From: Vairimorpha necatrix
Taxonomy: Eukaryota
Direction: 5' to 3'
DNA length: 64,000 nt
Assembly: GCA_036630325.1 (NCBI GenBank)
Contig: CP142728.1
Location: forward strand, 372,001-436,000
A program made the position numbers and the translations under genes. This document shows positions 5,008 through 57,491 of this stretch, piece after piece. Within the stretch, counting starts at the first letter, position 1. Every line of letters begins with the position of its first letter. The notes under the pieces are model-generated. The model worked only from the letters and a program-made list of their open reading frames with translations, made no database searches and had not been told where the DNA came from.

Positions 5008-5059
5008 TTGGGGTTCACATAAATAAAATTATTGAAAATTTAAGAAGCAAAAAAATATC

Positions 5060-5200
5060 ATGCAAGTATGAGGCAGGGAGAAACCTTACATATGAATCAA
5101 AGAACACGGATTTTGTGTTCTATCCAAATAATATTATGACATTCTATTTACTTATCTTACTTCAATGATTTTGCTCTGTAGTGACTCCTGCCGTGCAAAT
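5060..5200 (-). mobile_element. SINE family 3'-tail fragment
   Basis: TGCAAGTATGAGGCAGGGAGAAACCTTACATA matches the tail of the intact copy (TGCAAGTAAGAGGTAGGGAGAAACCTTACATA at ~44997). Similarity fades after ~100 bp. Confidence 0.6.
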
Positions 5201-5885
5201 ATTAATTCGGTTACAATAAAATTCGTCATGTTCATCATCATAGTTCTTCAGGAAAGATATACAATAGATATAATCGTTGTGCAATAGTAGATTAATTACG
5301 GAGCGGCAACATCGCATAAAAATGAACGCCCACTATAATCTGCATTTGAAAATAGTCTTTACTGCCATATTTTGCCATGCATTCAACATGTTGTGGATAA
5401 TTTGTCATATCAAAATCAACAAATGTTTGAAGAATTATTTTGATATTTTCCTCAAGACTATTGTTTTACTTCGTCAAATTTTACAAGTTCTTTTTAATTA
5501 CTTAAAAAATTGTACGTACATCGTTTTTTACCTTTTGTTTTTTTTTGTAAGTTTTATAATGATATAGCTGCTTAGTTCGGGTCTCAAGCTATTTTTAAAA
5601 AATACTATTTTTTTGCGATTGATAATATATAAAGAAAAGACCAAATTTAATAAGTATAGTGAAGGAATTTTCCAATATGAGGTAATAGGTTAATGTATAC
5701 AAAAAAAGAGCTCTTTGTCTTAATTCATTTTCTTTTACAACACAATTAATACAAAATAATACTTATTTTAATAATGTTTTTATATAAATTTATGCATCTA
5801 ATATTGTGATGTAATATAATAAAAAATTTGAACTATTAAAAATTATCCTAATTTTATTTTATTATAATAAAGATCAATATAAAAT

Positions 5886-7196: not shown

Positions 7197-8155
7197 GAGA
7201 ACTGTAGGTAATTATTTTTGAACCAGAGTTTTTTTTGTTGCCTCATCTTAAAAAATAAAGGAAAGAATTAGAACTTATCTATAATGAATTGATAACACAA
7301 AAAAAAAATAAATTTTGTGGAAAATGTTAAGGTAAAATGCGTATAATAGGTAAAAGAAATATTTACTTATTTCTACTTGGAAGAAATGTAAAAAGACAAT
7401 TTTTATTGGCATGATACTTTCTTAAGTAATTCCAAACTTGATCATTTACTAACGTTAAACTTTCAATATGTGGATTCTTGGGCATCCGAGTAAGTGTATA
7501 TGTCAAATTTTAGGTTGTTCGAAAAATCTATTCTCAGTTTAAAAAAAACTAAAAGAAATAAACATTTACATAAGTATTTGTATATAATAAACATTATAGA
7601 CATAAAAGATATAATAGTATTAATTGATGAAACAAAGTTAGGAAAAAATTTAAACTACCGAGACAAGCTAGTAAAAGAATTTTGGTGTTTGTAATTATTG
7701 ACCGGATTATAGATCTTTTATTACAATTGGTAAAAAAATGATATAAAACTCTAATAACACTTTTCATGGAATATGTAAACACAAAAAGTATCATACATAG
7801 TGATATGTGAAGAGCCTATAATTCTTTAGATACTTTATTTAGCCAACACCATATGGTTAACCATACATTACACTTTAAAGACCCAATCGCGGAAGTTCAT
7901 ACCAATACCATAAAGGGAATTGGCGAACACTAATAAATTCATTTGCTAATAGAAACAGATCAGTCAATAGTGCAAAACCATATTTGATTAGGTCTATGCT
8001 CCAAAAAAAATTCTTCATCTTAGTCTTTGCTGCTTTAAAAAATCTTTTATTCTACTTGTTAATTTTGTTCCTTCCTCAAAATTTTCTTTCCTTTATTTTT
8101 GAAAAAAGGGCAAAAACAAAAAACCCTAGTTCAAAAATTATTACCTATAGTTCTC
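7197..8155 (+). mobile_element. Degenerate Merlin (IS1016/ISXO2-like) DNA transposon
   Basis: Imperfect TIRs: GAGAACTGTAGGTAATTATTTTTGAACCAGAGTTT at the left end and the reverse complement of GAGAACTATAGGTAATAATTTTTGAACTAGGGTTT at the right end. Broken transposase motifs IDETKLGK, IHSD, VNH..HFKDP...VHTNTI are present. Confidence 0.85.
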
Positions 8156-17142: not shown

Positions 17143-17554
17143 TTCAGGGCCTTATTTAAAAATTATTAAATAATTTAAGTTTGTTTTATTGAGTCATGAA
17201 TATGTCAAATTTTAATCACAAAAAAAAAGTATAAAAGCTTAATTTCCTATAGATCAAAATTTTCAGCATGACTTGTACATTGACATTTTGACGCCATGCC
17301 TCAAAATGTGTGGATGACTTAGACACATTTTAGAACTAAAATATGATATGAATTTGCTTATATTTTTTTTTGAATTTGCAACATCTTTTTATTTTATTCT
17401 ATAGTTTCTTAACTTTATTTCTATACTAACCTAGCGTCTTTATAATTTTTTATCCTGTTTAACTTATAAATAAATTAACAAATATGTGTTATGTCTCGAT
17501 TTGACTTTAATATAAAATTACAAATGCTATATTTACAAGAAACTTGCACTCTAT

Positions 17555-18318
17555 TTTTTGCAAGTAAAATATAGGGCGAGCCCTCGCATAGAGAACAAAG
17601 AAATTCGGATGTCTCCTTTATCCAACTAACACTTTGTGATTATTATTTACATAAAATACCTTCATATAACTTGCCTGTTAACAAGTTCGCCGTATCCATC
17701 GGACTTTGGCTCCAGGAGAACACTTTCCATTTTTACCTCAAATCGCGTTTAGAGTGACCTCAAAGCGAATATATTAAACGAGCATCGCCATCTATGGCCC
17801 GTGTAGAAACATAATCGTACTAATTCAAAGGACCAACGATCATCCTTATCGCTCACATGGCTCATTATACCGCCAAATCACCAGCTCGGCGTTTTTATTG
17901 GGCTGCGTTGACACCAGTATATACCTAATTTCGACTACCATATTACGAAATCTTGTAGGATAGGGAACACGAGACCTATTATTGCTCTACTCCATCTATC
18001 CTCTTAGACGCTTTAGGATAATACACTTGTGTGCACTAGTCATGGGCTTCATTTTGGCTGTTAACAGGTACTTTTATGTATCATTAAGTCCCCACAAGGG
18101 TATACTGTTTTTCGGCCTTAAGGTGCGTTTCTACACTGATTTCTAATCCCATCGTGGCTGGACACACATAAGTTTCATCAAATCAACGTAACGACAATCG
18201 ACATTTTAATCCTCTGTGTTGTTCCAGACGCAAAAAAGAATAACTTTTGATGCTTTTGAACTCGAAATTAGACAAGCTAAATCGGAGTTATGTCTTCTAC
18301 TACAGAGCTGGGATCTCT
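17555..18318 (-). mobile_element. SINE family copy, near full length, degenerate head
   Basis: Long near-identical blocks shared with 44986-45776: GCCGTATCCAT.GGACTTTGGCTCCAGGAGAACACTTTCCATTT, TTTTATTGGGCTGCGTTGAC, TTATGTATCATTAAGTC and AGGTGCGTTTCTACACT. Confidence 0.88.
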
Positions 18319-20589
18319 AAAAAATACATCCTGTAGGTATTTACTGTTATACAAGGTTTTTTATATAATTTTAAGCACAAACGAAATATTAAATAGATTT
18401 TTTTTAACATCATACATTCAATATTTACCTAAATTAGACGATATATTTTCAGGTATGGCTTGTAGGAGAATATGCCCGCTACTGCTAGTTGAACTTTAAA
18501 GAAGCGCTTTACCACAAAATATACAAGTTTTTAGCTAAGAACATTGAAGTAATTATTATAACTCTTTTTCATAATTGGCCATGGGAACAAACAGGCTGGA
18601 CCGAGAAAATTTATTGCTCTAATATGATAGATATACATACTGTAAACATGATAAACAAATTTCTAATCAAATAAAAAAAAGCCAGGACTCATTTGGATAG
18701 GAAGCGTAAACAAACAACGAGTACATTTTATATTAAAAAACAAGTCGAGGTGTTATGCTTTTCAAATTATAACCAAGAATAATTAGTTATAAAATGCTTA
18801 AAATATACAATAACAATCAGTTTAGGAGATCATGGAAAACGATCAAGCTATGAAAGAGTGCATCACAATATCGACAAAAAATAAATAAACCCGAGATAGG
18901 CACGAAATCTTCTATTTCATTCCAAAAAAGTAAATACTCAAGGTGAAGATTGATGTAAGCTACCAGGTTCGACTACTCATTGTCGAAAATAAAAGCATTG
19001 ACACATGATATATAATTTTTTATTAAGCTATTGAGTTTATTTTCTTCAATTTAACTCCACTGCCGCGCATTCTATCTGGTCGCACCATCTTCTAGCCGGA
19101 TCTACTATGTTCTCGGTTCCAGATTCTTCCTCGGCATGTCTCTGCCGGCGGTAAAGGAGTTGCTCTCTAGTGTCTCCTTTATACTTCTCATTTGTATATA
19201 AGATTCGGTACTAGTCGATACCGAAAACATTAATATAATTGCTGTGGTATTTTGTTACAATTCAGTTCCATGTCATGACGTATGGTATTATTTGAACTTT
19301 ACATTTGTACATTAGGTCCAATTCATTTGCTAAGACATCGTACTTTCCGTGAATAATCCCGGGAAGTTGTTTCTATTACGATTAGTATCATTTACTTTTC
19401 CATGTCCAGTACAAATATATCAGGCTTTTTTAGTGTCTAAGTCATATACATTATCTAAGCTTAATCTTTAAAATATATATATATATTGGCGTTACATACG
19501 AATAAATAATTTTTGATATGAACTTATTTTAAACTTGAGTAAAGCTACCATTTTAGCGATATAGAAACAAATAAAGGCTTGTAATCATTTTAATCTATTA
19601 TATAGAAACACTTTTATTCCTTTAAAGAATGTGGTATTGTGAAACTAATACAATAAAAATTTTAATATTCTTTATAGCAGTTACAAAAACAATTAAACTT
19701 AAACTAGATCTACTGATTAAATTGGTTTAAATTTTAAATTTGTTTTGATAATTTTTCCTGAAGTACTTAGAGTATTTTTCATTATTTATACGATACAGTT
19801 TGGTATAATTCCCTTTAAAATTGAACAACATTGTGGATAACAACATATTATATGTTAAGATGGACAAAAATTATTTTGTACAGTCATTTCAGGTCAATTC
19901 AAATGATATTTCTGGAAAATAAATATACTGTAAAGAAATAGAAATAATCTTTTGCAAGTGCAAAGTGAAAGAGAAAATAAATGAGCACTTCCAAGATTTT
20001 AAAATTTTCATTTTTTTAAATTCTAGGATGATATCTTAGAAAATAATAGCAGTTAATTAATAAGGCTACTTTTAAAAATATTAATTGATCCAAAAAATAT
20101 TTCAAAGACATCTCCTAATAAGAAATTTTAAGGTAAATATCTCTCAAAGTATTTTTCATTAATGATTTAATTAAAATATAAAGTAATAGACTTTTAAAAA
20201 ACAGGTTAAAATAAAACTTTCCTTTTTTAAAAACTTTTATGTCAGACATTTGTTTTTATTTTTACAAATAATTAGTAAAATAAATTATAAATTAAATTTT
20301 CTAGGTTAAAGTCAAAAAATCCACAATGAAGATAGAATAAATTTGGAAAATCTGATTATAATAAATTTATAATAATTTGATAAGGCAATTCTGTAAATTA
20401 AATTTTTAAGAAAATATATCACTATGAGTTTTTTATAGAGCGCAAATAAAGAATTGATTTTTTCGTAGTATGATTAATTTGTTACGAAGAATTAAATGTA
20501 TACAAAAATTGTTTGTCGACAAACAAATTCTCAACTATAAAATCAATAAAATTTATATATTATAAATTTTATTGCCCACTTTATTAAAT

Positions 20590-21411: not shown

Positions 21412-21549
21412 AAGATCTTAATTTTTAAAAATAAAAGTTTATGCCATGAAAATTATTTTATTTATACGAAATTAATTTTTTTTAAATCATGCATGAGCAT
21501 AAAATTGTACATGGTTAAAAATATATGATATGGATAATTGAGATGTCTG

Positions 21550-22255
21550 TGGCCGAAGCCGGAGCAACGCTATTGGAATGTCTGAATTATAATACAGGGA
21601 CACCAAAGTTACTACCTTCTATGATGCAGTTGGAACAACTCAGATGATTAAAATGTCTACGATAATTATTAAGTTAGAACGATGAAACTTTTGTACGTAC
21701 AGCTATAAGAGACTTATATTTAGAACGATAGCAATTTTAATAAAATATTATACTTAAACATATTGTAGGTACGTTTTAAGAAAGCTTAGGCTTGTTGACT
21801 GTGGCAATCCAAATTCACTAACTAGACGGAGTGGAGCTTAAGTTTTCTCGTGGCCCTATACTACAGAATTCTGTAACATGGTGGCCGAAACTTACGGGAT
21901 ATAAAGAGTCAACATAGTCCCATTGAATGAAGAGCTAATGATGTGGCAGTGTAAGAGGCTGTGAGCGTTAAACAAAAATTGTAAGGGCCTTTAAGCTAAT
22001 ACAATGATGCCTCTCCTGGGTTATTAAACTATACTCGTTAGGTATAATCACTGTAAAGTCATTTGGATGCGTTTAGGGGATAGATGAACAAATATCACAG
22101 TAGAGCCAAAGTCCGATGATTTCGGCCGTGCTTTCTGCGCCGAAAAGTTATAGGAGGAAGTTTTAGTGAGTTGAATCCTAAAGTACCAGTTAAACTAGGA
22201 TCCTGAATTCTCTGGTTCCTATTCAAGAGTTCCCCAGCTTCTTATTTGCAAGGAA
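21550..22255 (+). mobile_element. SINE family copy, degenerate
   Basis: TTCTATGATGCAGTTGGAACAACTCAGATGAT, ATTCTGTAACATGGTGGCCGAAACT, GAGCCAAAGTCCGATGA and the terminal CTTATTTGCAAG match the reverse complement of 44986-45776. Confidence 0.82.
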
Positions 22256-22508
22256 GTATAACAGAGATAATTGAATTTAAAATTCTAATTTTTGGTTCTT
22301 TTAAATGTTGTCAACTTTACTAAGAAGTATAAGCTTGTATAAAGGCAACCCGTTTTAGGGCACATCGCTTAAGTACAATAAGCTTGTTACAGGCTCCCAC
22401 TTTTAGGCCCTAATATTCTCTAAACCCTTTCAGAACTCTTGGACAATGTTTCTATGAGTATTCTTAAGCGTTTCTAATATTAAATTAATTTTAATTTAAA
22501 TTAAAGTT

Positions 22509-24127: not shown

Positions 24128-24715
24128 GTTTTTTGCAAGTGTATGGTAGTTGAGATCTTACATTATAGAAGTATCTAGTGCAAACCTTGTCTATTGATGC
24201 TGTGGAATTTTTAAACAACCCCTTTTTATACAACTTTTTGGCGCAGCAAGCTTCGTCGTACCCATTGTTTTTTTTTCTCCAGATGATTTCCATTTATACC
24301 TCAAATCGAGCTTATAGTGACCTCACGGCAGATATACTAAACGGGCGTGGATTTTTATAAATCAAACAGACATCATCGTACTATCTCAAAGGTCCCTACA
24401 ATCATCTGTATTGCACAAACTGCTACATTCCAGGCCTTTTTATTGGACTGCGTTGACAACTTATCTCTCACCAATTTAAGCCACCGTGTTACAGAATCTT
24501 TAAGATTATAGTAAACGCGTCTTTTTATTGCCCTACTTCGTCTAGTTACTTTAAGAAAGATCCATTTAGAGTGCGCAAGTCATAAACACTGACTAACAGC
24601 TACTCTTATGTATCATTAAGTCACCACAAAATAAAATTGTTTTTCGGCCTTAAGGTGCGTTTCTGCACTAGATCCCTCTTATAGTTGTACTTACACAAGT
24701 TTCATCAAATAAATA
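24128..24715 (-). mobile_element. SINE family copy, 5'-truncated
   Basis: Starts with a T-run plus GCAAG tail and shares AGACATCATCGTACT, AAAGGTCCCTACAATCATC, GCCACCGTGTTACAGAATC and GGCCTTAAGGTGCGTTTCT. It stops before the tRNA head. Possible TSD CACTGT (24124-24129 / 24716-24721). Confidence 0.85.
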
Positions 24716-35634: not shown

Positions 35635-36537
35635 TTAATCTACGCCTTCAAGTAATAAAGTAGCAATCTCACAACATTTTCTTAATGATTCCAATTCTTG
35701 ATATAAATCGTATAATTTACCATAAATTTCGCGTAATAATTCTTTTTCGTCGTTTGTTAACATATTCACTTGTGCTTTATCTAAATATATTTCAAAACGT
35801 TTAAATTTTCCCAGTATATTAAACTCATAAAACAAGATATTTAATCTTTTGGGTATATTCTTAAATATATAAATATATTCAGCGATTGAATATGGAGTAT
35901 TTTTTATATGAGGAGGCATTTTTCTTATATAGTCGAAGCAATAAACAAAAAATTGCAATTTTTCATTAAACATTTTTTTTAACTTATCGTCTAGCGAACT
36001 TTTTGCGAAAAGATGTTTTATTTTATCTAATTGCGTTTTCATGCCAAAACTAAAACTGTTGAAAATTCTTTTTATTTGATTTTCAACATTCTTGAAATCT
36101 ATTTCTTTATCTGTATTTGATAGTGGATGAATGATAGCTTTCCCGATTAATTCTTTACTATCTTCTTCCTTCCACGCTTCAATTTTATTTTGTATAATTT
36201 CTAATGTCATTTTATCAATTGTATCTTTAATCTTAAAAAATTCCTCAAGCCGCGTATTTGGATTCTCGCTTAAGTTGTATGCAAATGATGTAGAATCAGC
36301 ATTATATTGCAAATTTTCTGTTCTATTTATATATCTTTTTGTCGTTTTTAGTCTTGTTGAAAATGGTTGAGCAATTTCCAATCTTTTTTTCTTTTTTAAT
36401 ACAAAATTTTTATCGTCTATATTTGAGTTTATCTCATTTTGAATGTTTTGTGATAAAACATTAGATTGCAATGTATTTGATTCGTATGATTGATTTATAT
36501 TTTCAATACATACTATTAGATAAAAATATATAAACAT
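35635..36537 (-). CDS. Paralog 1 of an unnamed SP+NLS helical protein family
   Basis: The ATG at 36537 follows CCCATT. Motifs MFIYFYLIVC, LKKKKR, W..ED, FFVYCFDYIRKMPPH, IPKRLNIL and LTNDEK are shared with the other paralogs. Confidence 0.85.
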   Translation of the reverse strand: MFIYFYLIVCIENINQSYESNTLQSNVLSQNIQNEINSNIDDKNFVLKKKKRLEIAQPFSTRLKTTKRYINRTENLQYNADSTSFAYNLSENPNTRLEEFFKIKDTIDKMTLEIIQNKIEAWKEEDSKELIGKAIIHPLSNTDKEIDFKNVENQIKRIFNSFSFGMKTQLDKIKHLFAKSSLDDKLKKMFNEKLQFFVYCFDYIRKMPPHIKNTPYSIAEYIYIFKNIPKRLNILFYEFNILGKFKRFEIYLDKAQVNMLTNDEKELLREIYGKLYDLYQELESLRKCCEIATLLLEGVD

Positions 36538-42213: not shown

Positions 42214-43158
42214 TTATTTATAAGCTAGTCGAAGCTTTTCAAGTGCCGAAACAGCAATCATACAATTTGTACTTAATGAGGGCAAATCTCTGTGTAATGT
42301 TTTTATTTTATCATTAACTTTGCTTAGTGGGTTTTTTTCATTTTCGGTCAGCTGATTATTGCATGCTTTGTCTATATTTTGCATAAAATGATTAAACTTC
42401 TGTATTATGTTGCCATAGTCATACAAGATATTTAGTCTAAGTGGTATATTTCTATATTTATAAATAAATCTTGCACTGTTTGATCTAAATCTTACATTAT
42501 GAGGAGGCATCTTTATTATACATGCAAAGCAATGCTCAAAAAAAAGCATTTGTTCTTGTAATCCATTTTTGGATCTTTCATTTATTTCAATTTTTTCTAT
42601 TAAATTATTAATTTTAGTCAATTGCGGGCTTAAATCCAAAGTAAAACTGTAAAAATAACCGTTTATTATATTTTTTGTGCTAATAAAATCTGTAGTTTCT
42701 TTTGTGGTTTTTTCGCAATTTATTTTAATAGTTTCAAATATCAGTTTTTCATCATCAAAATCCCATTGTTTAGTTTGTTCTTGTATCATTTCTAATGCCA
42801 ATTTATGAAAGGTACCATATGTCTGATCGTTTTCATTATTTTTATTTTGATTTGTTTTTTCGTGTTGTAAACTTGGATTTTCACATAACCGCTTAGGACA
42901 CGAATTATATTCATCATTAGATTGTGTATATGCTTCTTTTAATGTATATATTGTTGTCGGTGTTAGTTTGGGTGAAAGGGTTTCCCAATTTTCTGATCTT
43001 TTTCTTTTTTTTATATGAAGATTGATATCATTCATATTTGTACTATAGATTCTTTTATCTTGATTATCTTGTGATATGATGTTCGCTTTTAATGTCTTTA
43101 ATTCTTTTGGATGAAACAATGATTCAGTACATATTATTGGATAAAAATAATAAAGCAT
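42214..43158 (-). CDS. Paralog 2 of the SP+NLS family
   Basis: Start context GGCCCCAT-ATG. Motifs MLYYFYPIICTE, IKKRKR, QWDFDD, FFEHCFACIIKMPPH, IPLRLNIL and LTENEK. Confidence 0.88.
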   Translation of the reverse strand: MLYYFYPIICTESLFHPKELKTLKANIISQDNQDKRIYSTNMNDINLHIKKRKRSENWETLSPKLTPTTIYTLKEAYTQSNDEYNSCPKRLCENPSLQHEKTNQNKNNENDQTYGTFHKLALEMIQEQTKQWDFDDEKLIFETIKINCEKTTKETTDFISTKNIINGYFYSFTLDLSPQLTKINNLIEKIEINERSKNGLQEQMLFFEHCFACIIKMPPHNVRFRSNSARFIYKYRNIPLRLNILYDYGNIIQKFNHFMQNIDKACNNQLTENEKNPLSKVNDKIKTLHRDLPSLSTNCMIAVSALEKLRLAYK

Positions 43159-43344
43159 ATGGGGCCATAGTTTTTTTTACAAATAAAAAGTAAAATAATG
43201 TAGTGTACTTAAAATATTTATTTGTAAGATATTATTTTCATTTTAATCTTAAAGTATTGTCACAGACATCACAAAGAAAGGGAAGAGGGCTTCAAATGTT
43301 ATTTTTTATGGAGGACCTTGAGCTTATCTTCTCAACGGTTAAAG

Positions 43345-44307
43345 GGCAGTCTGGTGGCCAAAAATCCCTTAAAAGGAATTTTTAAAAAAATCACCCCAAA
43401 AATGAAAAGTCAAGAGGAAGAAAAATAAAAACTTAAAAATCATTTTAATAATTTTTTCAAACAAATCCCCTTCAAAATTTCTTCTAAGCATAAATCTTAC
43501 CAAAGAACTCTTTATTAATTTTTTTGTTCTATGCCTTATGGAAGTTTCACTTTTAACAGCACTCCAATTACCTTCGATAGTATTTGTATGGCATGAATTA
43601 TTTTTATTAACAAATTCTTTTGAATGATTAACCGTCTTATGTTGTTGAAAAATTAAACACATTCTAGAATATGAAGAGAAGCAATCACTATGTATGATAG
43701 ATTCTGGGTGAACATATTTAATTAAAAGTTCTTCTAGTGTAGAAGCTCTTCTATTATCAACAGGAACAAACACAATTTTCCTTTGAGGTGTTCTTTCTAC
43801 AATCCCGAAAATCCAAACTCCTTCTACTCTATGGCCTCTATGGTATTTTACTTTACCAAACTTACTTTCATCTATTTCCACAACAATCCCAGGTCCTCAT
43901 ATTATACCTGTTTCAACGTAAACAGAATTTTCGATGGAATTTACTGTTTAAGTTATGATTTTTCTTACACTTTTAATGCTAATTCCAAGAAATTCCGCAA
44001 TAGCTTTATACTTTACATTAACTGACCATAATTTAATAATTAATAACATAGTATTAATTCCAAGCTTGTTATTGTAGAATGGAGTGTTTTTTAATAAAGA
44101 CCATTTACTTCTACATTTAGACCAAGTACATCTAAAAATAAAATTTTCATTATATTTTTTACTTGAAGAACCACATTTTATACATATTTTGCTTGTTTTT
44201 TCAATGTATTTTAAAAAAATTTCAAAAAGTTTTTCCTCTTGACTTTTCATTTTTGGGGTGATTTTTTTAAAAATTCCTTTTAAGGGATTTTTGGCCACCA
44301 GACTGCC
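43345..44307 (-). mobile_element. Merlin (IS1016/ISXO2-like) transposon with perfect 75-bp TIRs
   Basis: 43345-43419 is the exact reverse complement of 44233-44307, starting GGCAGTCTGGTGGCC. No TSD is seen. Confidence 0.95.
43369..44250 (-). pseudogene. Merlin transposase with two in-frame stops
   Basis: A single frame from the ATG at 44250 carries a CxxC...CxxxxC zinc ribbon, a TAA at 43948-43950, a TGA at 43897-43899 (I*GPGIVVEIDESK, where IGGPG is expected), KYHRGHRVEGVWIFG, IHSD, VNHS and HTNTIEGNW. Confidence 0.9.
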
Positions 44308-44985
44308 ATAGCTCCCTTCTCAACAACCACTGGCATGCATTAAAGAACTTATTGACAGCCATTAAATGAGAATTTTTTTAGAATCTCATGATTTGTATAT
44401 TTATTCTGCATCTAAAATATACTGTGTAATACTAATGATAATAAAAAAAAAATGAAAAATGATTCAAATTATTTCAAAAAATACTGATTTTGATTTCATA
44501 AAAAGATTTAGTACGAAAAAGTAAAAAATATTCTAATGAAAGTTGAGAAGCTTCGGCCTATGGAAGATAATGTCGATACATTAGCTTTTATAAAATTTGA
44601 AAATTACTTGTTTCCAAGTATTGTAAAAATTTTGATGATTATTTTAAATAATTGAAATACATTCTTTTGGATTCATAGTATAATTTTTAGAATTTTGAAA
44701 TAAAATTTAAGCCAATCGATAAACTTTAATGTTGATATAACTTTGTAAAAACAAATCATGATGAAATATGAAAATTTTTATATTCTAAAAATCCAAATAG
44801 TCATAGAAATCGGACAATACATATAAATTGAAACCTTTATGGCGTTTTTTTGATTTATCGAAAAAGAAAAATATCTCGTGATACTAATTTGTTTAATTTG
44901 TTGTTACGTTGGTCATGACACGGAAAAGACAAGTAATCATCAAAGACCATAAATCTAACAGATAGCAGCGCCTCAATCAAAAGAT

Positions 44986-45776
44986 TTTTTTTTTCTTGCA
45001 AGTAAGAGGTAGGGAGAAACCTTACATAGGGACCAGAGGGATTTGGGTGTGATCCTCATCCAACTGGTACTGTGAGATTCTTACTCACTAAAACTCCCTC
45101 CATACACTTGCCGGTGCAGCAAGCTCCGCCGTATCCATTGGACTTTGGCTCCAGGAGAACACTTTCCATTTATACCTCAAATCGCGTCCAGAGTGACCTC
45201 ACAGCGGATATACTTAACGGGCATGGTTATCTATAACCCGAGGAGAGACATCATCGTACTGACTCAAAGGTCCCTACAATCATCCGTATTGCACACACGG
45301 CTCCTTACACGACCACATCCCCAGCCCGGCGTTTTTATTGGGCTGCGTTGACCACCAGTCTCCCACTAGTTTCGGCCACCGTGTTACAGAATCATGTAGG
45401 ATAGGGTCCACGAGACCTTCTATTGCCCTACTTCGTCTAGTCTCTTAGTTAGCTCTAGGATCCCACTCTAGAGTGCACCAGCCATGGGCTCCAACTAGGC
45501 CGTACCCATTAGATACTTTTATGTATCATTAAGTCACCAAAGGGCGATACTGCTTTTTGGCCTTGAGGTGCGTTTCTACACTAGATGCTAATCCCCTTGT
45601 GGCTGGACACACACAAGTTTCATTGAATCAACTTAATGATTATCGTGGACATTTTCATCATCTGAGTTGTTCCAACTGCATCATAGAAAGTAGAAACAAT
45701 TTTGGTGCCCCTGGGAATCGAACCCAGCTATTGCTCAATGGAAGCATAGCATTCTACCACTGTGCTAAGGGCACCT
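44986..45776 (-). mobile_element. Intact tRNA-derived SINE (~790 bp) with poly(A) tail and 14-bp TSD
   Basis: The TSD CTCAATCAAAAGAT lies at 44972-44985 and 45777-45790. The T-run at 44985-44994 is the poly(A) of the minus strand, and a tRNA-like head sits at the other end. Several homologous copies occur in the window. Confidence 0.92.
45703..45775 (-). promoter_or_regulatory. tRNA-like SINE head with Pol III A and B boxes
   Basis: Minus strand: GGTGCCC/GGGCACC acceptor stem, A box TAGCACAGTGG (45757-45767), B box GGTTCGATTCC (45714-45724), and T arm CTGGG-TTCGATT-CCCAG. The anticodon arm is irregular. Confidence 0.88.
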
Positions 45777-47419
45777 CTCAATCAAAAGATATATGAGAAC
45801 ATCATTGATGGTGTTTTTTCACATAAATAGTAAAATGATATTTCTCATTGATTGTATAAATTCTAAGAAAAACAATATGTTTTGTTTATATATGAACTTT
45901 TATTATATGTATGATAGCCCAGTTCTCTTTTGTGCATCTCCAAGAGATATACTGAACCAACAAAAACGATAAAATTTGACGATCGAACTAGAGGACTAAT
46001 AAACTGATTTTTGTTGGCGACATTCTTAATTCTAGGCCATGTTGTTTTCCTAGGCTATCTGTTTATATACATTTGCAAAAGCTAGGAAAAATTTATTTAA
46101 TTTTAATTTAGGTCAAATACGACTATTTTTTTCATAATTATATTTACTATCAAAAAAGCAACCTATACATTGTAAAAAAATTATTGTATGCTTTCACAAT
46201 TTTTAGAGAATTCGAATTTTGTGCATGTACCCTCGTTGCAAAATTTATAAAATCTTAAAAAATGTTATAAATTACCTAAGACCATTTAAGATGCATAAAA
46301 CTCCTGTTGTAGGATGAATTTAATATTCCCAATATTTGTAAATATACTTACATGACTAAAAAACACTAAATACTCATAAAATCCGTAATGCAAGTTTATA
46401 ACATTTGATGTTGCGTAATGAGATACTTATTTCCTAGGCCAATGACTAACAAATCTTCTATTCCAATTAGTTTTTTAAGGTCTTTTATCAATTTGCGTAT
46501 CACAAAAAGCTGCAATAAAATATATTATATTCAAATTATAAGCACTTTCTAAGGTTAATCCAGCCCAACTTATATTTCTGCTGTATTAAAAAAACGATAA
46601 AAAAGATGAAAATCCTATCAAAACTAACAAATCTAGATGAATTTTTCTGAAATACATAGAACCCCCGCCGTAAATACAATCTAAAAATCTTTTGTCTTGT
46701 GATTCTTAAATAAAATAAAAAATACTAGTTTGTTTACGCTAAAAATAAAGTTTCTTTGTTTTAATTCCCTCATAAGATATCATTACACCAACGTTTTTAT
46801 ATTGTTTTCGATTTTATTTACGAAAATTTTGAATATTCTATGGTATATTGTTTACATTTCTATGATATTTACATGTTTTAAAATGCCAACACGCTTTGTG
46901 TGCTTGCATAAATACATATAAAAGACAAAAAAAATTAATCACTCTTAATGATATGTGTTAAAAAAATTTCTTAAAATTCGGTGCAGTATGCCTAGATATA
47001 TTCGACTTGTCATAAATTAGTTATAATTAAACTATGTCTTTTACGTCTATAGTTCTATTTTTACTTTCATATAAATGTCACAAGAACATCATTAATTTAA
47101 AAAAAAATATTTAACATTTTCATGGGCCAATGATAATTTAAATACTCATGTTTTTAATATTTCTCCGTTTTAATCAATCTATTAAAAATTTAAAATGAAA
47201 TTTTTTGCAATACCCTAATCTGTTTTGATTAAATGGATCATTGCAATCCAGTATGTTTCGTTTGATATCTGATTTTTCCTCTATAAAATACTTTATAAAA
47301 ACATTCTGTAATCTATGCCTAGCAGAATTAGCATGAAAAATATTTACTTAGCTTTTCAAACTATGATTTAATGTTAATATATATAAAATTAAAAAGGTAT
47401 TTTTTATTTTCATATTTTA

Positions 47420-48265
47420 TACTAAGCATTAATGGCTTCACACAACAATCAAATATTTTATGCCCGATTAATTTTGCCTTTTAGTTATAAGTAATATTTT
47501 ACTTTTGCTTCTCGAAGTGTTTTTTTATTATCAGTCAATATATTTACACGTTTGAATCCTAATTATATATAAATTTTGCTCTAAATCGAATTTATTTGCA
47601 CAACTTTTATCTTTGCAAAATTAATATGTATTAAATCAATTTCCGAATTGATTTTCAATGTTTCATATTTAAAGATTCAATTTCAAAATATAATAGAAAA
47701 TGCAAAAATTAAAAAAATTTACTATATTTTATTAGAATCAACATTTTATATAAATTTTTCAAATTTATACATATAATATCTGATAACCCCCGTAAAGTGC
47801 TTTTAATCCTTTTTTAATATTTTAGTTATTAAAACTTTTCTTAAATTTTAATCACACCACGTAAATATTTTTGATTCGTAGTAATTCATTCTTTTAGACC
47901 ATTTTAATATCTGTGTTTGGACAATGCAATTAAGATTGATTATTCGTATCATTTATATCATTTTTTTTGATAAATTGATTGGTTAATTTGAAAATTCGAA
48001 TAGTAGGATACACTCTTAACACATTAATTATATTTATTAGTAGATTCAGATATCACTTGCATAGAATAGTTACTTTCATTATTCTTTAAACTAGATAAAT
48101 GCATCAAATTTATTAATCTTTATTCTTCTTAAAAAAAAATTAATATGATCTATTGCCCGTTGATTACGATTGTGTTCTGGTTTTAATTTTTAAATAATTC
48201 GCTATTAATAAATCCAGCCTACAATATTCAAGTGTTTATAACTACATAAAACAATTATACATCAT
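47420..48265 (-). pseudogene. Decayed sixth paralog of the SP+NLS family
   Basis: Minus-strand fragments appear in the family's order and approximate spacing: ATG ~48265, VQTQILKW (~47900), FNFCIFYYILKL (~47680-47715) and NILTDNKKTLRE (~47500-47545). There are many stops. Confidence 0.55.
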
Positions 48266-51200
48266 ATGAATAATAGTTTTCAATACAAATACATAAATTT
48301 AAAAAAATATAGAAATTAAAAGCAAAAAAAAACGAGGGATAATATTTATTGATGTTTATTTTAAATCTGCACTAAGTTTTAACAAGTACATTTTTAAAAA
48401 TATCTACTAGAATAGGTACTTGTAAGAAAAAATTACAAGCATTTTATGATTCATCAAGAACCGACTTTAGCCATTTATCACTCTAATTGTTACTATTATA
48501 AAGGTATGCCTGAATAGACCAAAAATGGTTGTCCACGGCGATTTCTATAAGATTCGTGGTCTATCATCTTCAAATTTTTTGAATTTAAGAATTTATGAGA
48601 GACATGTATTATATGCCAGAGAAATATTAAGTCGTTATTTAAAAAAATAAAATTCCATATGAGGCATAAAGGCCATTTAATTTTTTATATAAGATACCCT
48701 TTACCGGGCATGATAGACTACAGAATATAAATAGAAAAGATTATAATCCATTTTATAAAATTTATAACCGCAACAAAAAGTTTTTTACGAGACAAAATCA
48801 ATACAGTAGACAGAAAGAAAGCATTTCGTTGAAGCATCAATGTATGAGTCAAAAAAATTAATTCCGCGTCACACAACTGCTTCTGTGCGATAATTAAATT
48901 GTGATAAGAACCAAGACTCTTCAAATCATTCCAGGTGGAATATAAATATAATCAATTTGGTTCACTATCGCTACATGGACTGATTCGCAATGATAAATTG
49001 TATTTACATTATTCTCTTAAAAAATAAATTTTTTTCATACAAAAAAGGCATTTGAATTAAGGTCATCAAAATGCAAAAAAGATGTACGAAAACATAGAAT
49101 GTTCATTTCTGTTTTTTTTAATGTCTAAAGGCCCTTGTATATTGATATAAATTTAATACTACATGCATTTAATTGTCTTTTATTGTATATCTTCTCAGGG
49201 ATAAATATGATTTATTTTTGTATAATTTTTTACTTACTAATTACTTTTCACAAGATGCACCCACAATCTCTTTTGACAGTTTCCGTAACTCCTTCTGAAG
49301 TCAATACATTGGGTTCTTGAATTTTCCTCCTAGTTCATTATTAAGCCTATGTCTGATTGAAATAGTTAGGCTTTTCAAAATCATTTACAGAACTCTTGTC
49401 TGTATATATGCGTTCTTTCTGGTTATAATTGAAGCTTTTTAATATGCACGTGGTCAAAATATCTACTATTTCATCTCAAGTCAAGCAAGGAATAATTTAT
49501 TAACTCCAAAAAATTTTGTTTACACCTAAATTAAGGCCAATGCAAGGGATCACCAAGTATTTTCTTCAATGCTGTCTAATATATAATGGATACAAAGAGT
49601 TTAAAACTCTATATTTTTGCAAAAAGAGCCAATACTCTTTTCGTTTCTCCGTATGATATTTTCGGGGACTTTAGTCTCGAGATCTGTTGAGCTATGCATA
49701 GGATAAGTTACAACTCCTATTTGAGAGAAAAAAGAGGTATTTACAGGGTAATTTTTATGTTTTGGAATAAATGTATTTATAATCACGAGAGTACAAATAA
49801 AAATTAAAAACAAATTTGTATAAGTATTATTACGTTTATTTTGTCTTGTATGTTTTTAGATTATAAAAAGGTTAAAATCTGTTGATTAAAATTAAAGCAT
49901 GAGTGTTGGCAAGAGAAAAACATAGTCTTAGATTCGAGAATATCTACAATACAAATATTTAGCTGTACAATTTTAGTGCGAATTTATTTGGGTCACTAAT
50001 TTTTTTTAATTTGTACTTTATCATTTTCAAAAAAATGAAAAGCAGGTTGGTGACAAAAATTATTAGTAATTTTACATATGATGCTACAAAAAAAAATATT
50101 TTAATGATATAAATTTATTTGTAATGTAGATTTTTGAGGAATGAAAAATTTAACAATAAGTATACAAACCATTGAAATGTAGTCTTTTATTTACTGCGGT
50201 TTATTTGTTTTGTAAAGAGATTCATATAAAAAATATTCTTCTGAAATAAAGTCATTGAAAACAAAAAAATCGATCGGAAATGGACAACTAAAAACATTTT
50301 TTTCATTCTAAAATGGTTAAATTTTACAAAAAATGCAAGGAATTTGTCGACTTTTCTTAAGATGAAGTATGAATTTAAAAATGAGTAATATGAAATTATA
50401 TTTATAATTTTTTTATATTTTTAATGGGGAAAGTAGCTAATAAATTTGTTCCCGGCTGCTCACGGGGTTTAAAATTTTTTTTAAGGTTGTAAAAACAATC
50501 CAAAATGAGTCTAAAGTTTACTTTTGCGCAAATTTTATTACATTTTTAAAAGAAAATTTTTTTCTTTTATTCACTTGAGCAACTGTAAAAATTACACTTC
50601 AAAATAAATTTTTTTTAAGTTTAATAATAACTATGTCGTGACGTATTTTGAAATTTCCCGAAATAAATGAACTTAAGTGTGATTAAAAATGTAAATTAAG
50701 GGGAAAAACGCTTTATTTTTATTTTTCGAAGCAAACTATTGCTTAAATTATAATATCATTTTCTAAACATCAATACTTATCTACTATACTAAATATACAT
50801 GCCCATGGAAAATAATATATTTCATAAGAAGTAAAAGGTATATATTATTCTGATATTTAGAAATTCTATGAAAAGGGCCTTAAATTCAATGTTTTTTAGC
50901 ATGTTGAAATCTAAATAAGTATTTTTTGTGATAATTTTTTTATACTTAACATTCTTTATATTCGTGGATTCATAAAAACATTAAAGATGGTACATATTTA
51001 AAAATATAAATAATGTATTCAGCATAAGTTTTTTTTTTGCTTAGAAAAAACATCATTTTTAATTAAGTATCCAATTCAACCTTTTAAAATAAGTAGTACA
51101 ATTAAATATATCCAGAATTTAAAACTTTCTTTGAAAGTACTAGTTATATACTTGTTAAACTGTTTCAAAGGCTGTTAACATCGCGCCCAAATAATTACAA

Positions 51201-51673
51201 ACACGTTAAAAGCTTTTAACGAACAGGCTTAAAAACTATTTTTCTGACTAGACATATAATGTACAATGGCCTTCTCGTAGAAAAAAAATCGTTTTGAGTA
51301 TATATGATATTTTTTGTCTCTAAAAAAACAGGCAAGTTATGTAACGTTAATTACAAAGAATTTTTTTTGAAAAATTATTTTTTATAAACTACAATATGAA
51401 TTAAACCTTATTAATAATTGCAGATATATTAATAAAAAAAAACCGTTTAAATTTTTTTAATTTAAATATAATTGCGTTCTAAGTATTATATTTAAAAGTA
51501 AAAAAATAAAAATAACATTCAATTAAAAATTTCTTATCTACATATATTCAAAGATTATCAACCCCCCCTCCCGAAATTTATGAAATTCTTTATTTCGCTT
51601 TTAAAATGAATGCATATTCGTTTTTTATGATCTAATTACACAAAAATTAAAAGACAAGTAGTTTTAATGTTTT

Positions 51674-52618
51674 TTACCCGTACTTAAATATAAGTACTTT
51701 AAGATTTAACACAATATTCGAACATACCGTATATATTTCGTTCAAGGATCTAAAGAGGGAATCCAATTTTTGATAAGTTTTGCCTAAGATTTCTTTTCCA
51801 TCGTTTGTCAATGAAAAATTAAAACTTCTCTCCAAAGCATATTCGAGAGATTTAAAATTTTCAAGCAGCTGGAATTTTTTGAACAAAACATTTAGTCTTA
51901 TAGGCAGGGTGCTATAATTCGAAATTAATTTCATAGAATGATATTTATAATGCAAATAAAAGGGGCTTATTTTCTTTATATAGTCGAAGCAGTATTTAAA
52001 AAAAAGTAACTGTTCAAGTATCAATTTTTTTGATACTTCATCCTTAGCTACAAAAAATATAAAGCTCTCAATTTTTGTTAAATTACAATCTAGCTCGCCG
52101 TAAAAACTAAAAAAATGTCCATATATTATTTTCATGTTATTAATGTGCATTTTGACTTCATATACATTGTTATGGCAATTTTTTAGTGTATAGGGCCATT
52201 CCAGAAGATCATCATCGAAATCCCATTGGTCAATTTGATTATTTAAAATTTCTAAATCTGATTTAAATGTTTCATCATTTATTGGACGCTTTTCTTTATT
52301 TTTGTCTTGATTGTATTTATGAGACTGCAATTTTGTATTCTCACATGTACTTTTATCACATATGTTAACATATTCGTTGTTTGGAGAATGTTTTCGTTTG
52401 AGAAGAAACCTTTGTGTCGAATCTCCATTGTTAAAAGACTTAGACACATTTAATAATATTTTTCTCTTTTTCAACGGAAGATTTCCCTCGTTTTTTTCAG
52501 CATTGGGTACGGATTCGTAGTTATTATCTTGTAATGCTATCTGTGTATTGGGCGCATTTGATTCGGTTTTTTTATTTAACTTTTGAGTACAGGATATGAA
52601 AAAAATGTATTGAATCAT
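51674..52618 (-). CDS. Paralog 3 of the SP+NLS family
   Basis: Start context CCCCACA-ATG. Motifs MIQYIFFISCTQ, LPLKKRK, QWDFDD, FFKYCFDYIKKISP, LPIRLNVL and LTNDGK. Confidence 0.88.
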   Translation of the reverse strand: MIQYIFFISCTQKLNKKTESNAPNTQIALQDNNYESVPNAEKNEGNLPLKKRKILLNVSKSFNNGDSTQRFLLKRKHSPNNEYVNICDKSTCENTKLQSHKYNQDKNKEKRPINDETFKSDLEILNNQIDQWDFDDDLLEWPYTLKNCHNNVYEVKMHINNMKIIYGHFFSFYGELDCNLTKIESFIFFVAKDEVSKKLILEQLLFFKYCFDYIKKISPFYLHYKYHSMKLISNYSTLPIRLNVLFKKFQLLENFKSLEYALERSFNFSLTNDGKEILGKTYQKLDSLFRSLNEIYTVCSNIVLNLKVLIFKYG

Positions 52619-56522: not shown

Positions 56523-57491
56523 TTATTTTTTAAAAAAATGATTCTTTTTTCCATATTTGTCCCTAAGTTTTTTAAGATTTGATACAATATTACTAGAATA
56601 ACGACATATTTGTTTATAATTGTCAAATAAAAGTCTAATTTTGTTTCCGACTACGTTCACTGCATATTTTTCTTTATCTGTCAATAAATTATTACATATT
56701 CTTTCTAAATTATACCTAAAAATTTCAAAATTCTCGTTTAATTTAAATTTGTCATCAAGAATCTTAAGTCTATTAGGAGTCTTTCCATATAATGAAATTA
56801 AAATATGACTATTAAAAATATAACGTTGTTGACTGGGGAGCATATTTTTTATATATTCAATACAATGTTCGAAAAAAAGAAATTGTTTATATAACGATTT
56901 CTTGGGCTTTTCATCCCATGAAATTCTGTGGATAATTTTCTCAATTTTTTTAAGATTAAAGCTTATATTCAGTTTAAACCGGTAAAAAACTCGATTAATG
57001 TAAATTCTATTTTGAAAATAGATTTTGTGTTCCTGTGTTTCCTTATCACAATTTAATTCCATTCCGTCAATTTCGATTTGTTTATCTTCTAAAATCCAAG
57101 TTTTTAATTGATCTTTTAATAATTTTAATGCTGATTTACACACAGAATCATTTTTCTGAATTTTTTCATCTGTCTTGTATATATTTGTTCTCCCGACTTG
57201 TTCTTTTGAAACTTTACATGCTTCCTCTGCATTTTTATTAAAATTGATTCCAGAATAAGAACCTACCGATTCAAAACAATAACATTGTTTTGTAATTGGT
57301 GCATTATTTATTTCCGATAAACTAAATGTTCTTTTCCTTTTTTTTAGTGGAAGGGTTTTCTCATATATAACTTCACTAGTTATCATTTTATTTTGACTAT
57401 ATTTAATTGAAATATTCTCTTGTGCACAATTTGATTTATGTGATTTGTTCAAAATTTCCGTACATATAATATGAAATATATATTTAAACAT
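56523..57491 (-). CDS. Paralog 4 of the SP+NLS family
   Basis: The ATG at 57491 follows CCCACATA. Motifs MFKYIFHIICTE, LPLKKRKR, TW..ED, FFEHCIEYIKNMLP, TPNRLKIL and LTDKEK. Confidence 0.88.
   Translation of the reverse strand: MFKYIFHIICTEILNKSHKSNCAQENISIKYSQNKMITSEVIYEKTLPLKKRKRTFSLSEINNAPITKQCYCFESVGSYSGINFNKNAEEACKVSKEQVGRTNIYKTDEKIQKNDSVCKSALKLLKDQLKTWILEDKQIEIDGMELNCDKETQEHKIYFQNRIYINRVFYRFKLNISFNLKKIEKIIHRISWDEKPKKSLYKQFLFFEHCIEYIKNMLPSQQRYIFNSHILISLYGKTPNRLKILDDKFKLNENFEIFRYNLERICNNLLTDKEKYAVNVVGNKIRLLFDNYKQICRYSSNIVSNLKKLRDKYGKKNHFFKK

Follow-up and report, generated by a model that had tools for sequence, protein, structure and literature searches.

Microsporidia are the textbook example of genome reduction among eukaryotes, though some of their lineages are nonetheless rich in transposons. 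No characterised microsporidian SINE was found in the literature searched for the present study. The survey of mobile DNA in microsporidia was protein-based, and its main text never uses the word SINE (PMC4202319), and the genome account of Nosema bombycis gives a RepeatMasker line only, with 0.18% "SINE" (PMC3614468). Because these surveys were based on proteins or confined to a RepeatMasker line, non-coding retroposons have gone undescribed in the literature searched.

The closest described systems are found in other fungi. The tRNA-derived SINEs Foxy of Fusarium oxysporum, Mg-SINE of Magnaporthe and AfuSINE2 of Aspergillus fumigatus have a tRNA-related head with A and B boxes, a non-coding body, an A-rich tail and short target-site duplications (TSDs), all of which recur in the element described here (PMC5063351). 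Such fungal SINEs are present in tens to hundreds of copies, and the TSDs of AfuSINE2 measure 4–14 bp (PMC5063351). Eg-R1 and Egh24 of Blumeria resemble the present element in another set of traits, namely a length of 700–900 bp, non-autonomy, dispersal in the genome of an obligate biotroph and intergenic location (PMC5063351, PMC6022598). Eg-R1 is without A and B boxes, has T-runs in its interior as well as a polyadenylation signal, is transcribed by RNA polymerase II (Pol II) and encodes a peptide (PMC6022598).

RESULTS

Anatomy of the element

The window analysed is the whole stretch of DNA, 64 kb in length. On its minus strand, positions 45776–44986 were read as a 791-bp element consisting of a tRNA-like head, a non-coding body and an A11 tail, which lies at an AT-rich, intergenic insertion site and has a GC content of 0.47, compared to 0.27 for the window. 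The element and its borders comprise the following features, in the 5′ to 3′ direction of the element.

45777..45790, unstranded: TSD copy on the 5′ side of the element, CTCAATCAAAAGAT on the plus strand (sequence read; identity of the two copies checked), the one retained at the empty site described below
45703..45776, minus strand: tRNA-like head, an extra A at 45776 followed by a 73-nt cloverleaf
45757..45767, minus strand: A box TAGCACAGTGG, internal Pol III promoter motif, consensus match
45714..45724, minus strand: B box GGTTCGATTCC, internal Pol III promoter motif, sole exact match in the window
44997..45702, minus strand: linker and ~700-bp non-coding body, GC 0.39–0.56 per 100 nt
45011..45099, minus strand: 3′-terminal region with two hairpins, weakly like the R2 retrotransposon 3′UTR model (Rfam RF00524)
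44986..44996, minus strand: A11 tail (T11 on the plus strand; sequence read)
44972..44985, unstranded: TSD copy on the 3′ side of the element, containing TTTT (44979–44982) on the element strand

The 14-mer stands at both 44972–44985 and 45777–45790, and the outer neighbouring bases of its two copies are unlike, so that the TSD is exactly 14 bp long; an exact match at a single fixed offset would arise by chance with a probability of 1.3e-8. With the 5′ truncation seen in other copies, the A-rich tail and the TSD complete the marks of retroposition. The TTTT inside the 3′ TSD lies shortly beyond the tail and may act as a Pol III terminator.

ARAGORN called a single tRNA-like gene in the 64 kb, at 45703–45775 on the minus strand, and labelled it Met/CAT. 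The cloverleaf, as read from the sequence, has a 7-bp acceptor stem, a 5-bp T stem and the anticodon loop UCCAUUG. The Rfam tRNA model matched the head with 26.6 bits (E=0.0043), under its gathering score of 29, and at gathering level Rfam gave zero matches across the whole window. A functional tRNA-Met would be expected to have U33, a purine at position 37 and a score above gathering, whereas the loop of the head has C33 and U37; because of these two bases, the head is probably not a working tRNA.

The A box corresponds to the textbook consensus. When one mismatch was allowed, the B box had three matches in the window against 1.9 expected, and the combined pattern of A-box core and B box had a single occurrence in the window and none in 100 shuffles. 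Both boxes are exact, correctly spaced and located at the extreme 5′ end, the element starting 1 nt before the tRNA-like +1, and the element thus has the tRNA-derived 5′ head with A and B boxes by which such SINEs are recognised. The two boxes suggest that the element may be transcribed by Pol III.

Non-coding body and 3′ end

The longest stop-to-stop frame in the element spans 91 aa on the antisense strand. No frame is kept across the other copies: all six frames of at least 45 aa are interrupted in the copies A, C and D that are listed below, and one 54-aa frame is without a stop in copy B, but its length there differs by 17 nt. At 791 bp and with no conserved frame, the element is short and non-coding, as SINEs are. 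An Rfam scan at E≤10 gave no match to rRNA, 5S, 7SL, snRNA or ribozymes on the element, and only weak hits to Rfam families in its body.

The RF00524 match to the 3′-terminal region scored 19.2 bits against a gathering score of 38 (E=0.18 in a 961-nt scan and 0.04 in a 215-nt scan), below the level at which an R2-clade 3′UTR tail would be assigned, and this possible resemblance of the tail is a lead only. The single-sequence fold of the element had a z-score of −3.3 (20 shuffles). RNAalifold on five copies yielded a weak consensus of 69 pairs (−19.4 kcal/mol, covariation term −2.1), and its pair counts were above both controls, the structure being drawn from the same alignment and the copies being decaying fossils. 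The element strand has one T4 run (TTTT, position 684) compared to five A4 runs, and its body has zero runs of five or more T. Selective avoidance of Pol III terminators on this strand was considered and rejected, since a shuffle test gave no significance to the shortage of T-runs (1 run observed against 2.4 expected, P=0.29).

Other copies in the window

BLASTN and nhmmer detected five homologues in the window, 65–78% identical to the 791-bp element, and no further ones. By the sum of copy spans, the family occupies ~6% of the window.

17554..18320, minus strand: copy A, full length, its head decayed; body identity 78% (BLASTN 17554–18226), GC 0.40
21528..22262, plus strand: copy C, near full length; 67% identical (BLASTN 21595–22255), GC 0.38
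24134..24715, minus strand: copy B, 5′-truncated by ~135 nt, without head; 72% identical (BLASTN 24240–24713), GC 0.36
62612..63232, plus strand: copy D, the oldest; 65% identical (BLASTN 62612–63229), GC 0.35, with a head either missing or too decayed to recognise
5025..5234, minus strand: copy E, a strongly 5′-truncated 3′ fragment of ~210 bp; BLASTN 5058–5145 (73%), nhmmer 5025–5234 at profile positions 589–799

The six copies in both orientations and at different stages of decay that were originally predicted for the 64 kb were thus recovered, but in the old ones the tRNA-like head can be recognised only weakly. The head of copy A aligned at 24 of 34 positions at the expected place, and that of copy C has its last 11 nt clear and a weakly alignable remainder. 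In shuffle tests by local alignment, P was 0.03 between the reference element and copy A (78-column head block), 0.04 between copies A and C, and 0.26 between the reference element and copy C, with no signal in copy D. The heads of copies B and E are missing, and two or three of the five older copies are 5′-truncated.

Among the window copies, only the 791-bp element has a recognisable TSD, none being found by eye around the older ones. GC-to-AT changes exceeded AT-to-GC changes in the older copies (104:45, 127:56, 157:65 and 136:57), and GC falls with copy age from 0.47 to 0.35. The copies down to 65% identity, together with this decay bias, uphold the prediction that the family is long-lived. 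No reverse-transcriptase gene was found among the ORFs of at least 100 aa in the window.

Empty site and copies in public reads

The search for empty-site alleles, suggested with the original prediction, yielded one in run X2, from a close relative. A 387-nt contig joins 44961 to 45777, with 9 letters corresponding to window positions 44962–44971 and a single copy of the 14-mer; the empty site rests on this single contig, of depth 3.49. The X2 flanks are ~97% identical to the window (9/410 and 13/339 letters differ). Head, body and tail, together with one TSD copy, therefore inserted as one unit, and this 791-bp unit duplicated 14 bp of its AT-rich intergenic target. The empty site strengthens the SINE call and supports the view that the family was recently active.

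The same unit, ending at the same two points, occurs at numerous further sites, both in this organism and in a close relative. The element was covered by 485 contigs in run X1 and 217 in run X2. In run X2, three contigs pass into unlike sequence at 45776 and three at 44986, and in run X1, 26 contigs ending at 44985 continue with T14 or more and then with unlike flanks; other copies therefore have longer A-tails. The body-to-head junction of other copies was present in run X1 (record 6, 45605–45747 with 12 differences) and run X3 (record 24, 45422–45728), and these contigs dispel the concern that other copies might never carry the head. With the six window copies and the X1 and X2 contigs, the element thus belongs to a dispersed multi-copy family sharing head and ends, the old window heads being marginal. 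Run X4 contained two ~40-nt matches with unlike flanks, not enough to point to a habitat or a relative.

The summed depth in run X2 was 207–840 on the element compared to 3.2–3.5 on the flanks, and 207 in the head bin compared to 3.5 on the flank, summed contig depth in public runs being no copy number. In run X1, whose library type is a guess, depth was very uneven, at 0 on the left flank, 16–318 on the right flank and up to 341,000 on the element. The X1 depth gradient, which peaks at the 3′ end, was tried as a gauge of 5′ truncation and dropped because summed depth is no copy number and flank cover was erratic.

DISCUSSION

Reading of the sequence together with ARAGORN, Rfam and BLASTN confirmed a 791-bp element with a tRNA-like head, a ~700-bp body, an A-tail and an exact 14-bp TSD. 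We consider it likely that the element is a tRNA-derived SINE, i.e., a non-autonomous non-LTR retroposon, of a microsporidian of the Nosema/Vairimorpha clade and of the insect-parasite type, putatively transcribed by Pol III and copied by the enzyme of a partner LINE. Published tables report LINE families for members of the genus Nosema (Table 1 of PMC4202319, Table 2 of PMC3614468).

The following scenario may explain how the family spreads. Guided by the A and B boxes, RNA polymerase III would initiate at the head, pass through the body, which has no T-run of five or more, and the templated A-tail, and stop at a T-run in the flank, here the TTTT within the duplicated 14-mer. The reverse transcriptase/endonuclease of an autonomous LINE may then bind the A-tail and/or the 3′ hairpins, nick the target and copy the RNA in place by target-primed reverse transcription, staggered nicks producing the 14-bp duplication and incomplete copying producing truncated copies. 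Old copies decay toward the AT-richness of the genome. The master lineage would stay at ~47% GC in a 27% GC genome, we propose because only copies with a working head and 3′ end are recopied.

The element might instead be a Pol II-transcribed non-autonomous retroposon with a vestigial head that is not a promoter, its RNA being polyadenylated like mRNA before a LINE enzyme copies it, as has been proposed for Eg-R1. Long fungal SINE-like elements without Pol III features and with Pol II transcripts do exist (PMC6022598), the body contains one TTTT, and A-tail length differs among copies. However, exact boxes with the correct spacing occupy the extreme 5′ end, 1 nt downstream of which lies the tRNA-like +1; the contigs indicate that other copies have the same 5′ end in common; and no AATAAA was read within 30 nt of the tail. 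Eg-R1 itself, moreover, is without A and B boxes (PMC6022598), and we regard Pol II transcription as unlikely. The ARAGORN call and the barely recognisable heads of the older window copies would also suit a true tRNA-Met gene that happens to lie beside an unrelated dispersed repeat. Such an adjacency is already contradicted by the empty site, since TSD and empty-site contig enclose head and body jointly, and is further opposed by the body-to-head contigs of other copies, the excess of X2 depth in the head bin over the flank, C33 and U37 in the anticodon loop and the Rfam score under gathering; we give it almost no credence.

The GC-richness of the element, at 47% in a 27% GC genome, could reflect foreign origin rather than selection if the family, or its GC-rich master, had been transferred recently from an animal host, and there are reports of transposon transfer from hosts to Nosema species and to other microsporidia (PMC3614468, PMC4202319). 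The window, however, holds copies alignable over their full length down to 65% identity, indicating long residence of the family, and the contig collections scanned (metagenome, genome and viral, with no animal genomes, Dfam or Repbase among them) gave no match: a 23-nt exact mid-body pattern had 0 matches in each of the three, and a 24-nt exact tail-hairpin pattern had 0 in the metagenome contigs. Given these old copies and the collections scanned, recent transfer from a host is very improbable.

Returning to the tRNA-derived SINE, a more far-reaching version can be put forward as a speculation that we rate as doubtful. This would be the first characterised SINE family in Microsporidia and still mobile, held at ~47% GC against AT mutation bias since its ~700-nt body and 3′ hairpins would be needed by an R2/R4-type LINE enzyme inserting at dispersed AT-rich sites, not in rDNA. 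If so, presence or absence of copies would provide homoplasy-poor strain and species markers for this group of parasites. Filled and empty sites are simple presence/absence markers for telling isolates apart, and the family makes up part of the enlarged intergenic space. Its polymorphism between close relatives suggests that at least one LINE enzyme has recently been active in the lineage.

Compared with the 3′UTRs of R2/R4-clade LINEs, the last ~90 nt of the element weakly match the R2 3′UTR model, with half of the gathering score but with strand and end as expected. Short derivatives of R2/R4-clade LINEs are known as SIDEs. LINEs that carry an AP-type endonuclease more typically leave a 14-bp TSD and an A-tail of variable length, and the present insertions, unlike those of R2/R4 elements, are scattered through intergenic DNA instead of lying in rDNA. 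In N. bombycis, LINEs of the Dong-R4 class account for 1.04% of the genome (Table 2 of PMC3614468).

The length of the element was originally predicted to be unusual. Though longer than Mg-SINE (472 bp), it falls inside the 700–900 bp range of other fungal SINE-like elements, and ~790 bp is thus ordinary beside described elements of 472–900 bp (PMC5063351). The element belongs to a well-known class and leaves the known working of SINEs unchanged. It differs from Eg-R1 in its exact A and B boxes and in having no conserved frame. From the fungal tRNA-derived SINEs, to which it is likened by description and not by sequence, it differs in phylum, belonging to the Microsporidia, and in being GC-rich in a very AT-rich genome.

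Anatomy of the tRNA-headed element

The element occupies 791 bp on the minus strand and is composed as follows.

Features of the element
45776, minus strand: single A, first base of the element, preceding the cloverleaf
45775-45703, minus strand: tRNA-like cloverleaf, 73 nt (ARAGORN, labelled tRNA-Met(CAT))
45767-45757, minus strand: A box, TAGCACAGTGG, sequence match to consensus
45724-45714, minus strand: B box, GGTTCGATTCC, sequence match to consensus
45702-44997, minus strand: linker and body, 706 nt
44996-44986, minus strand: A11 tail
44972-44985 and 45777-45790: target-site duplication (TSD), CTCAATCAAAAGAT, exactly 14 bp, enclosing the whole element

The cloverleaf was the sole tRNA-like gene that ARAGORN found within the 64 kb, and its acceptor and T stems were both perfect. 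Against the Rfam tRNA model the head scored 26.6 bits (E=0.0043; gathering score 29), and no Rfam match reached gathering level anywhere in the window. By textbook consensus, we take TAGCACAGTGG and GGTTCGATTCC to be the A and B boxes; a single pairing of A-box core and B box at tRNA spacing was found in the window, against none in 100 shuffles. In the alignment to the Rfam tRNA model, the anticodon loop reads UCCAUUG and has C33 and U37. The head is a tRNA derivative and not a plausible working tRNA, the "Met" label being nominal. The probability of an exact 14-bp match at one fixed offset by chance was 1.3e-8. The original prediction of a tRNA-headed element with intact stems, an A-tail and an exact 14-bp TSD was thus borne out by the sequence, ARAGORN and the A and B boxes.

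The element was also GC-rich and non-coding, as predicted: its GC content was 47% against 27% for the window, and no stop-to-stop frame exceeded 91 aa. None of the six frames of at least 45 aa was intact in the older copies A, C, and D. In copy B a 54-aa frame was free of stops, but its length there differed by 17 nt. The single-sequence fold was somewhat stabler than shuffles (z = -3.3, with only 20 shuffles). The consensus fold of five copies was weak (69 pairs, -19.4 kcal/mol) and exceeded shuffle and slide controls, though the structure was derived from the same alignment. Comparison with Rfam, originally proposed as a check for embedded ribozymes, gave no ribozyme, rRNA, 5S, 7SL or snRNA similarity. 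The last ~90 nt weakly matched the Rfam R2 3'UTR model (19.2 bits; gathering 38) on the correct strand and at the correct end, with E=0.18 in an unbiased 961-nt scan; this possible resemblance is a lead to a partner LINE, not a finding.

Older copies in the window

BLASTN and an nhmmer profile recovered five homologues and no more, the same ones as originally listed, in both orientations and at varied stages of decay.

Homologues of the element in the window
Copy A, 17554-18320, minus strand: 78% identity; full length, head decayed
Copy B, 24134-24715, minus strand: 72% identity; ~135 nt missing at the 5' end
Copy C, 21528-22262, plus strand: 67% identity; near full length
Copy D, 62612-63232, plus strand: 65% identity; head absent or unrecognisable
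Copy E, 5025-5234, minus strand: 73% identity over 88 nt; 3' fragment

Each of the six copies in the window lay between ORFs and had the same 3' end (...CTTACTTGCAAG, then a short A-rich run). The GC content of copies dropped as divergence grew (0.47, 0.40, 0.38, 0.36, 0.35), and, with the young copy as reference, GC-to-AT differences outnumbered AT-to-GC differences (104:45, 127:56, 157:65, 136:57); the old copies are fossils drifting toward the composition of the genome. Their heads were poorly preserved. Copy A had a collinear match of 34 nt (24/34) at the expected place, and in copy C the final 11 nt of the head ran directly into the body; shuffle tests on the head block gave P=0.03 between the young element and A, P=0.04 between A and C, P=0.26 between the young element and C, and no signal for D. 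The window copies alone thus leave the head-body question half open.

Empty site and other insertions in public sequencing runs

Contigs of four public runs (X1-X4) were aligned to window 44500-46300. The depth of X2 was low on the two flanks (3.2-3.5); one flank showed nine differences and three gaps in 410 letters, the other 13 differences and two gaps in 339. X2 thus represents a close relative and a different strain. A 387-nt contig of X2 joined 44961 directly to 45777, the nine letters between them at the junction (CTGCAGCGC) corresponding to window 44962-44971 (ATAGCAGCGC). This one low-depth contig is an empty site, with the left flank, a single 14-mer and the right flank in succession; the head, the body, the tail and one copy of the TSD therefore came in as a single insertion, after the window and X2 lineages had split.

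The element is highly repeated in the organisms of both the window and X2. It was covered by 485 contigs of X1, whose library type was guessed and whose flank cover was erratic, and by 217 of X2, where summed contig depth, which is not copy number, was 207-840 on the element (207 in the head bin) and ~3.4 on the flanks. Six X2 contigs entered unlike sequence exactly at the element ends (three at 45776, three at 44986). In X1, 26 contigs did so at 44985, each running first through at least 14 T, indicating longer A-tails in other copies. Near-identical pieces with different flanks occurred in X3, a bat gut metagenome. Body and head were bridged in other copies by X1 record 6 (45605-45747, 12 differences) and X3 record 24 (45422-45728, three differences), so that the head was found in copies elsewhere and the public contigs settle the union of head and body. 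Most other copies differed from the window element at about five positions (45105, 45285, 45290, 45331, 45729) and by a 1-nt insertion, A behind 45105; the window element is thus a young member, <1% from the majority.

X4, a freshwater metagenome, contained just two ~40-nt pieces (45062-45103 and 45603-45641), with two to three differences each and unlike flanks. A different organism may carry a related family, of which these pieces would be the best-conserved segments.

Genomic setting

The genes of the window are compact and apparently intron-free, and include XRN exonuclease, DNA polymerase delta subunit B, histone deacetylase and pyruvate kinase. For the last, identity was 63% with Vairimorpha ceranae, 57% with V. 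bombi and 45% with Nosema granulosis, and lower for the remaining matches, which places the organism among the microsporidia of the Nosema/Vairimorpha clade. Five paralogous minus-strand ORFs (35635-36537, 42214-43158, 51674-52618, 56523-57491, 60760-61713; 300-322 aa, pairwise identity 26-35%) matched no Pfam family above cut-off and are a lineage-specific gene family, grouped in the right-hand half of the window. Outside the SINE region, ORFs of at least 100 aa were absent from 44320-51670 (~7 kb); non-coding space of this length is unusual for a microsporidian.

A remnant of a Merlin-like DNA transposon spans 43328-44324, at ~660 bp distance from the SINE. Its terminal inverted repeats are 78 bp long (43345-43422 and 44230-44307, 98.7% identical). 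Of the two broken frames that it carries, 43369-43896(-) encodes a DDE_Tnp_IS1595 domain (E=1.3e-13) and 43948-44319(-) has a weak HTH match; the 9-bp direct repeat CTTCTCAAC, 8 nt beyond each inverted repeat, is a possible target duplication of this remnant. Another pair of inverted repeats (7197-7267 and 8084-8155; 85% identity over 72 nt) encloses ~960 bp of AT-rich sequence that lacks ORFs of at least 100 aa, and is possibly a MITE-like element.

Discussion

The insertion was of retroposon type: the inserted unit is non-coding, has a tRNA-like head and an A-tail, and is flanked by a 14-bp TSD. Its family has many copies whose ends are shared, includes 5'-truncated members, and is both long resident and recently active. 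The original SINE interpretation is strengthened by the empty-site allele of X2; "long-lived" agrees with the 65%-identical fossils, and "recently active" with the empty site.

Following established SINE biology, Pol III would be directed by the A and B boxes to begin transcription at 45776 or beside it, pass through the body, the element strand having no T5 run and a single T4 run (position 684), and end at the flank T-run (TTTT, 44982-44979), four bases beyond the tail. The shortage of T runs was not significant (one observed, 2.4 expected, P=0.29) and thus adds little to this reading. A LINE enzyme would then perform target-primed reverse transcription of the SINE RNA. No LINE was located among the window ORFs of at least 100 aa; Table 1 of PMC4202319 gives 4-15 LINE families per species in Nosema, and Table 2 of PMC3614468 gives 1.04% for "Dong-R4" LINEs in N. 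bombycis.

The mutation bias of the genome clearly erodes GC, and the best explanation for the persistence of a master at 47% GC is that copies able to transpose are selected. A foreign origin would also account for this composition, but is the weaker alternative, since 65%-identical fossils indicate that the family is long resident. The window element, though mechanistically ordinary, is a SINE that is clean and was recently mobile, and the non-coding retroposons of its phylum have been ignored; it is usable as a marker and is evidence of recent LINE activity.

In searches of openly available full-text articles, no SINE family was found described for Microsporidia; a library entry for the family, for instance in Repbase Reports or Dfam, may exist. 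In term searches, "SINE" did not occur in the main texts of PMC4202319, PMC7313128, PMC12558613, and PMC12449221. The microsporidian mentions found were RepeatMasker category lines, namely 0.18% in N. bombycis (PMC3614468), zero in the published line for Microsporidia sp. MB, and a category in that for a Glugea comparison.

At the sequence level, the element has every feature of a tRNA-derived SINE. Its length, originally considered unusual, is unexceptional among fungi, for which PMC5063351 lists SINE-like elements of 472-900 bp (MgSINE 472 bp, Egr1 700 bp, mgsr1 800 bp, EGH24 900 bp), along with TSDs of 4-14 bp for AfuSINE2. Eg-R1, as described in PMC6022598, is a caution that long fungal "SINE-like" elements can be Pol II units; it is without A and B boxes, whereas both are intact in the window element.
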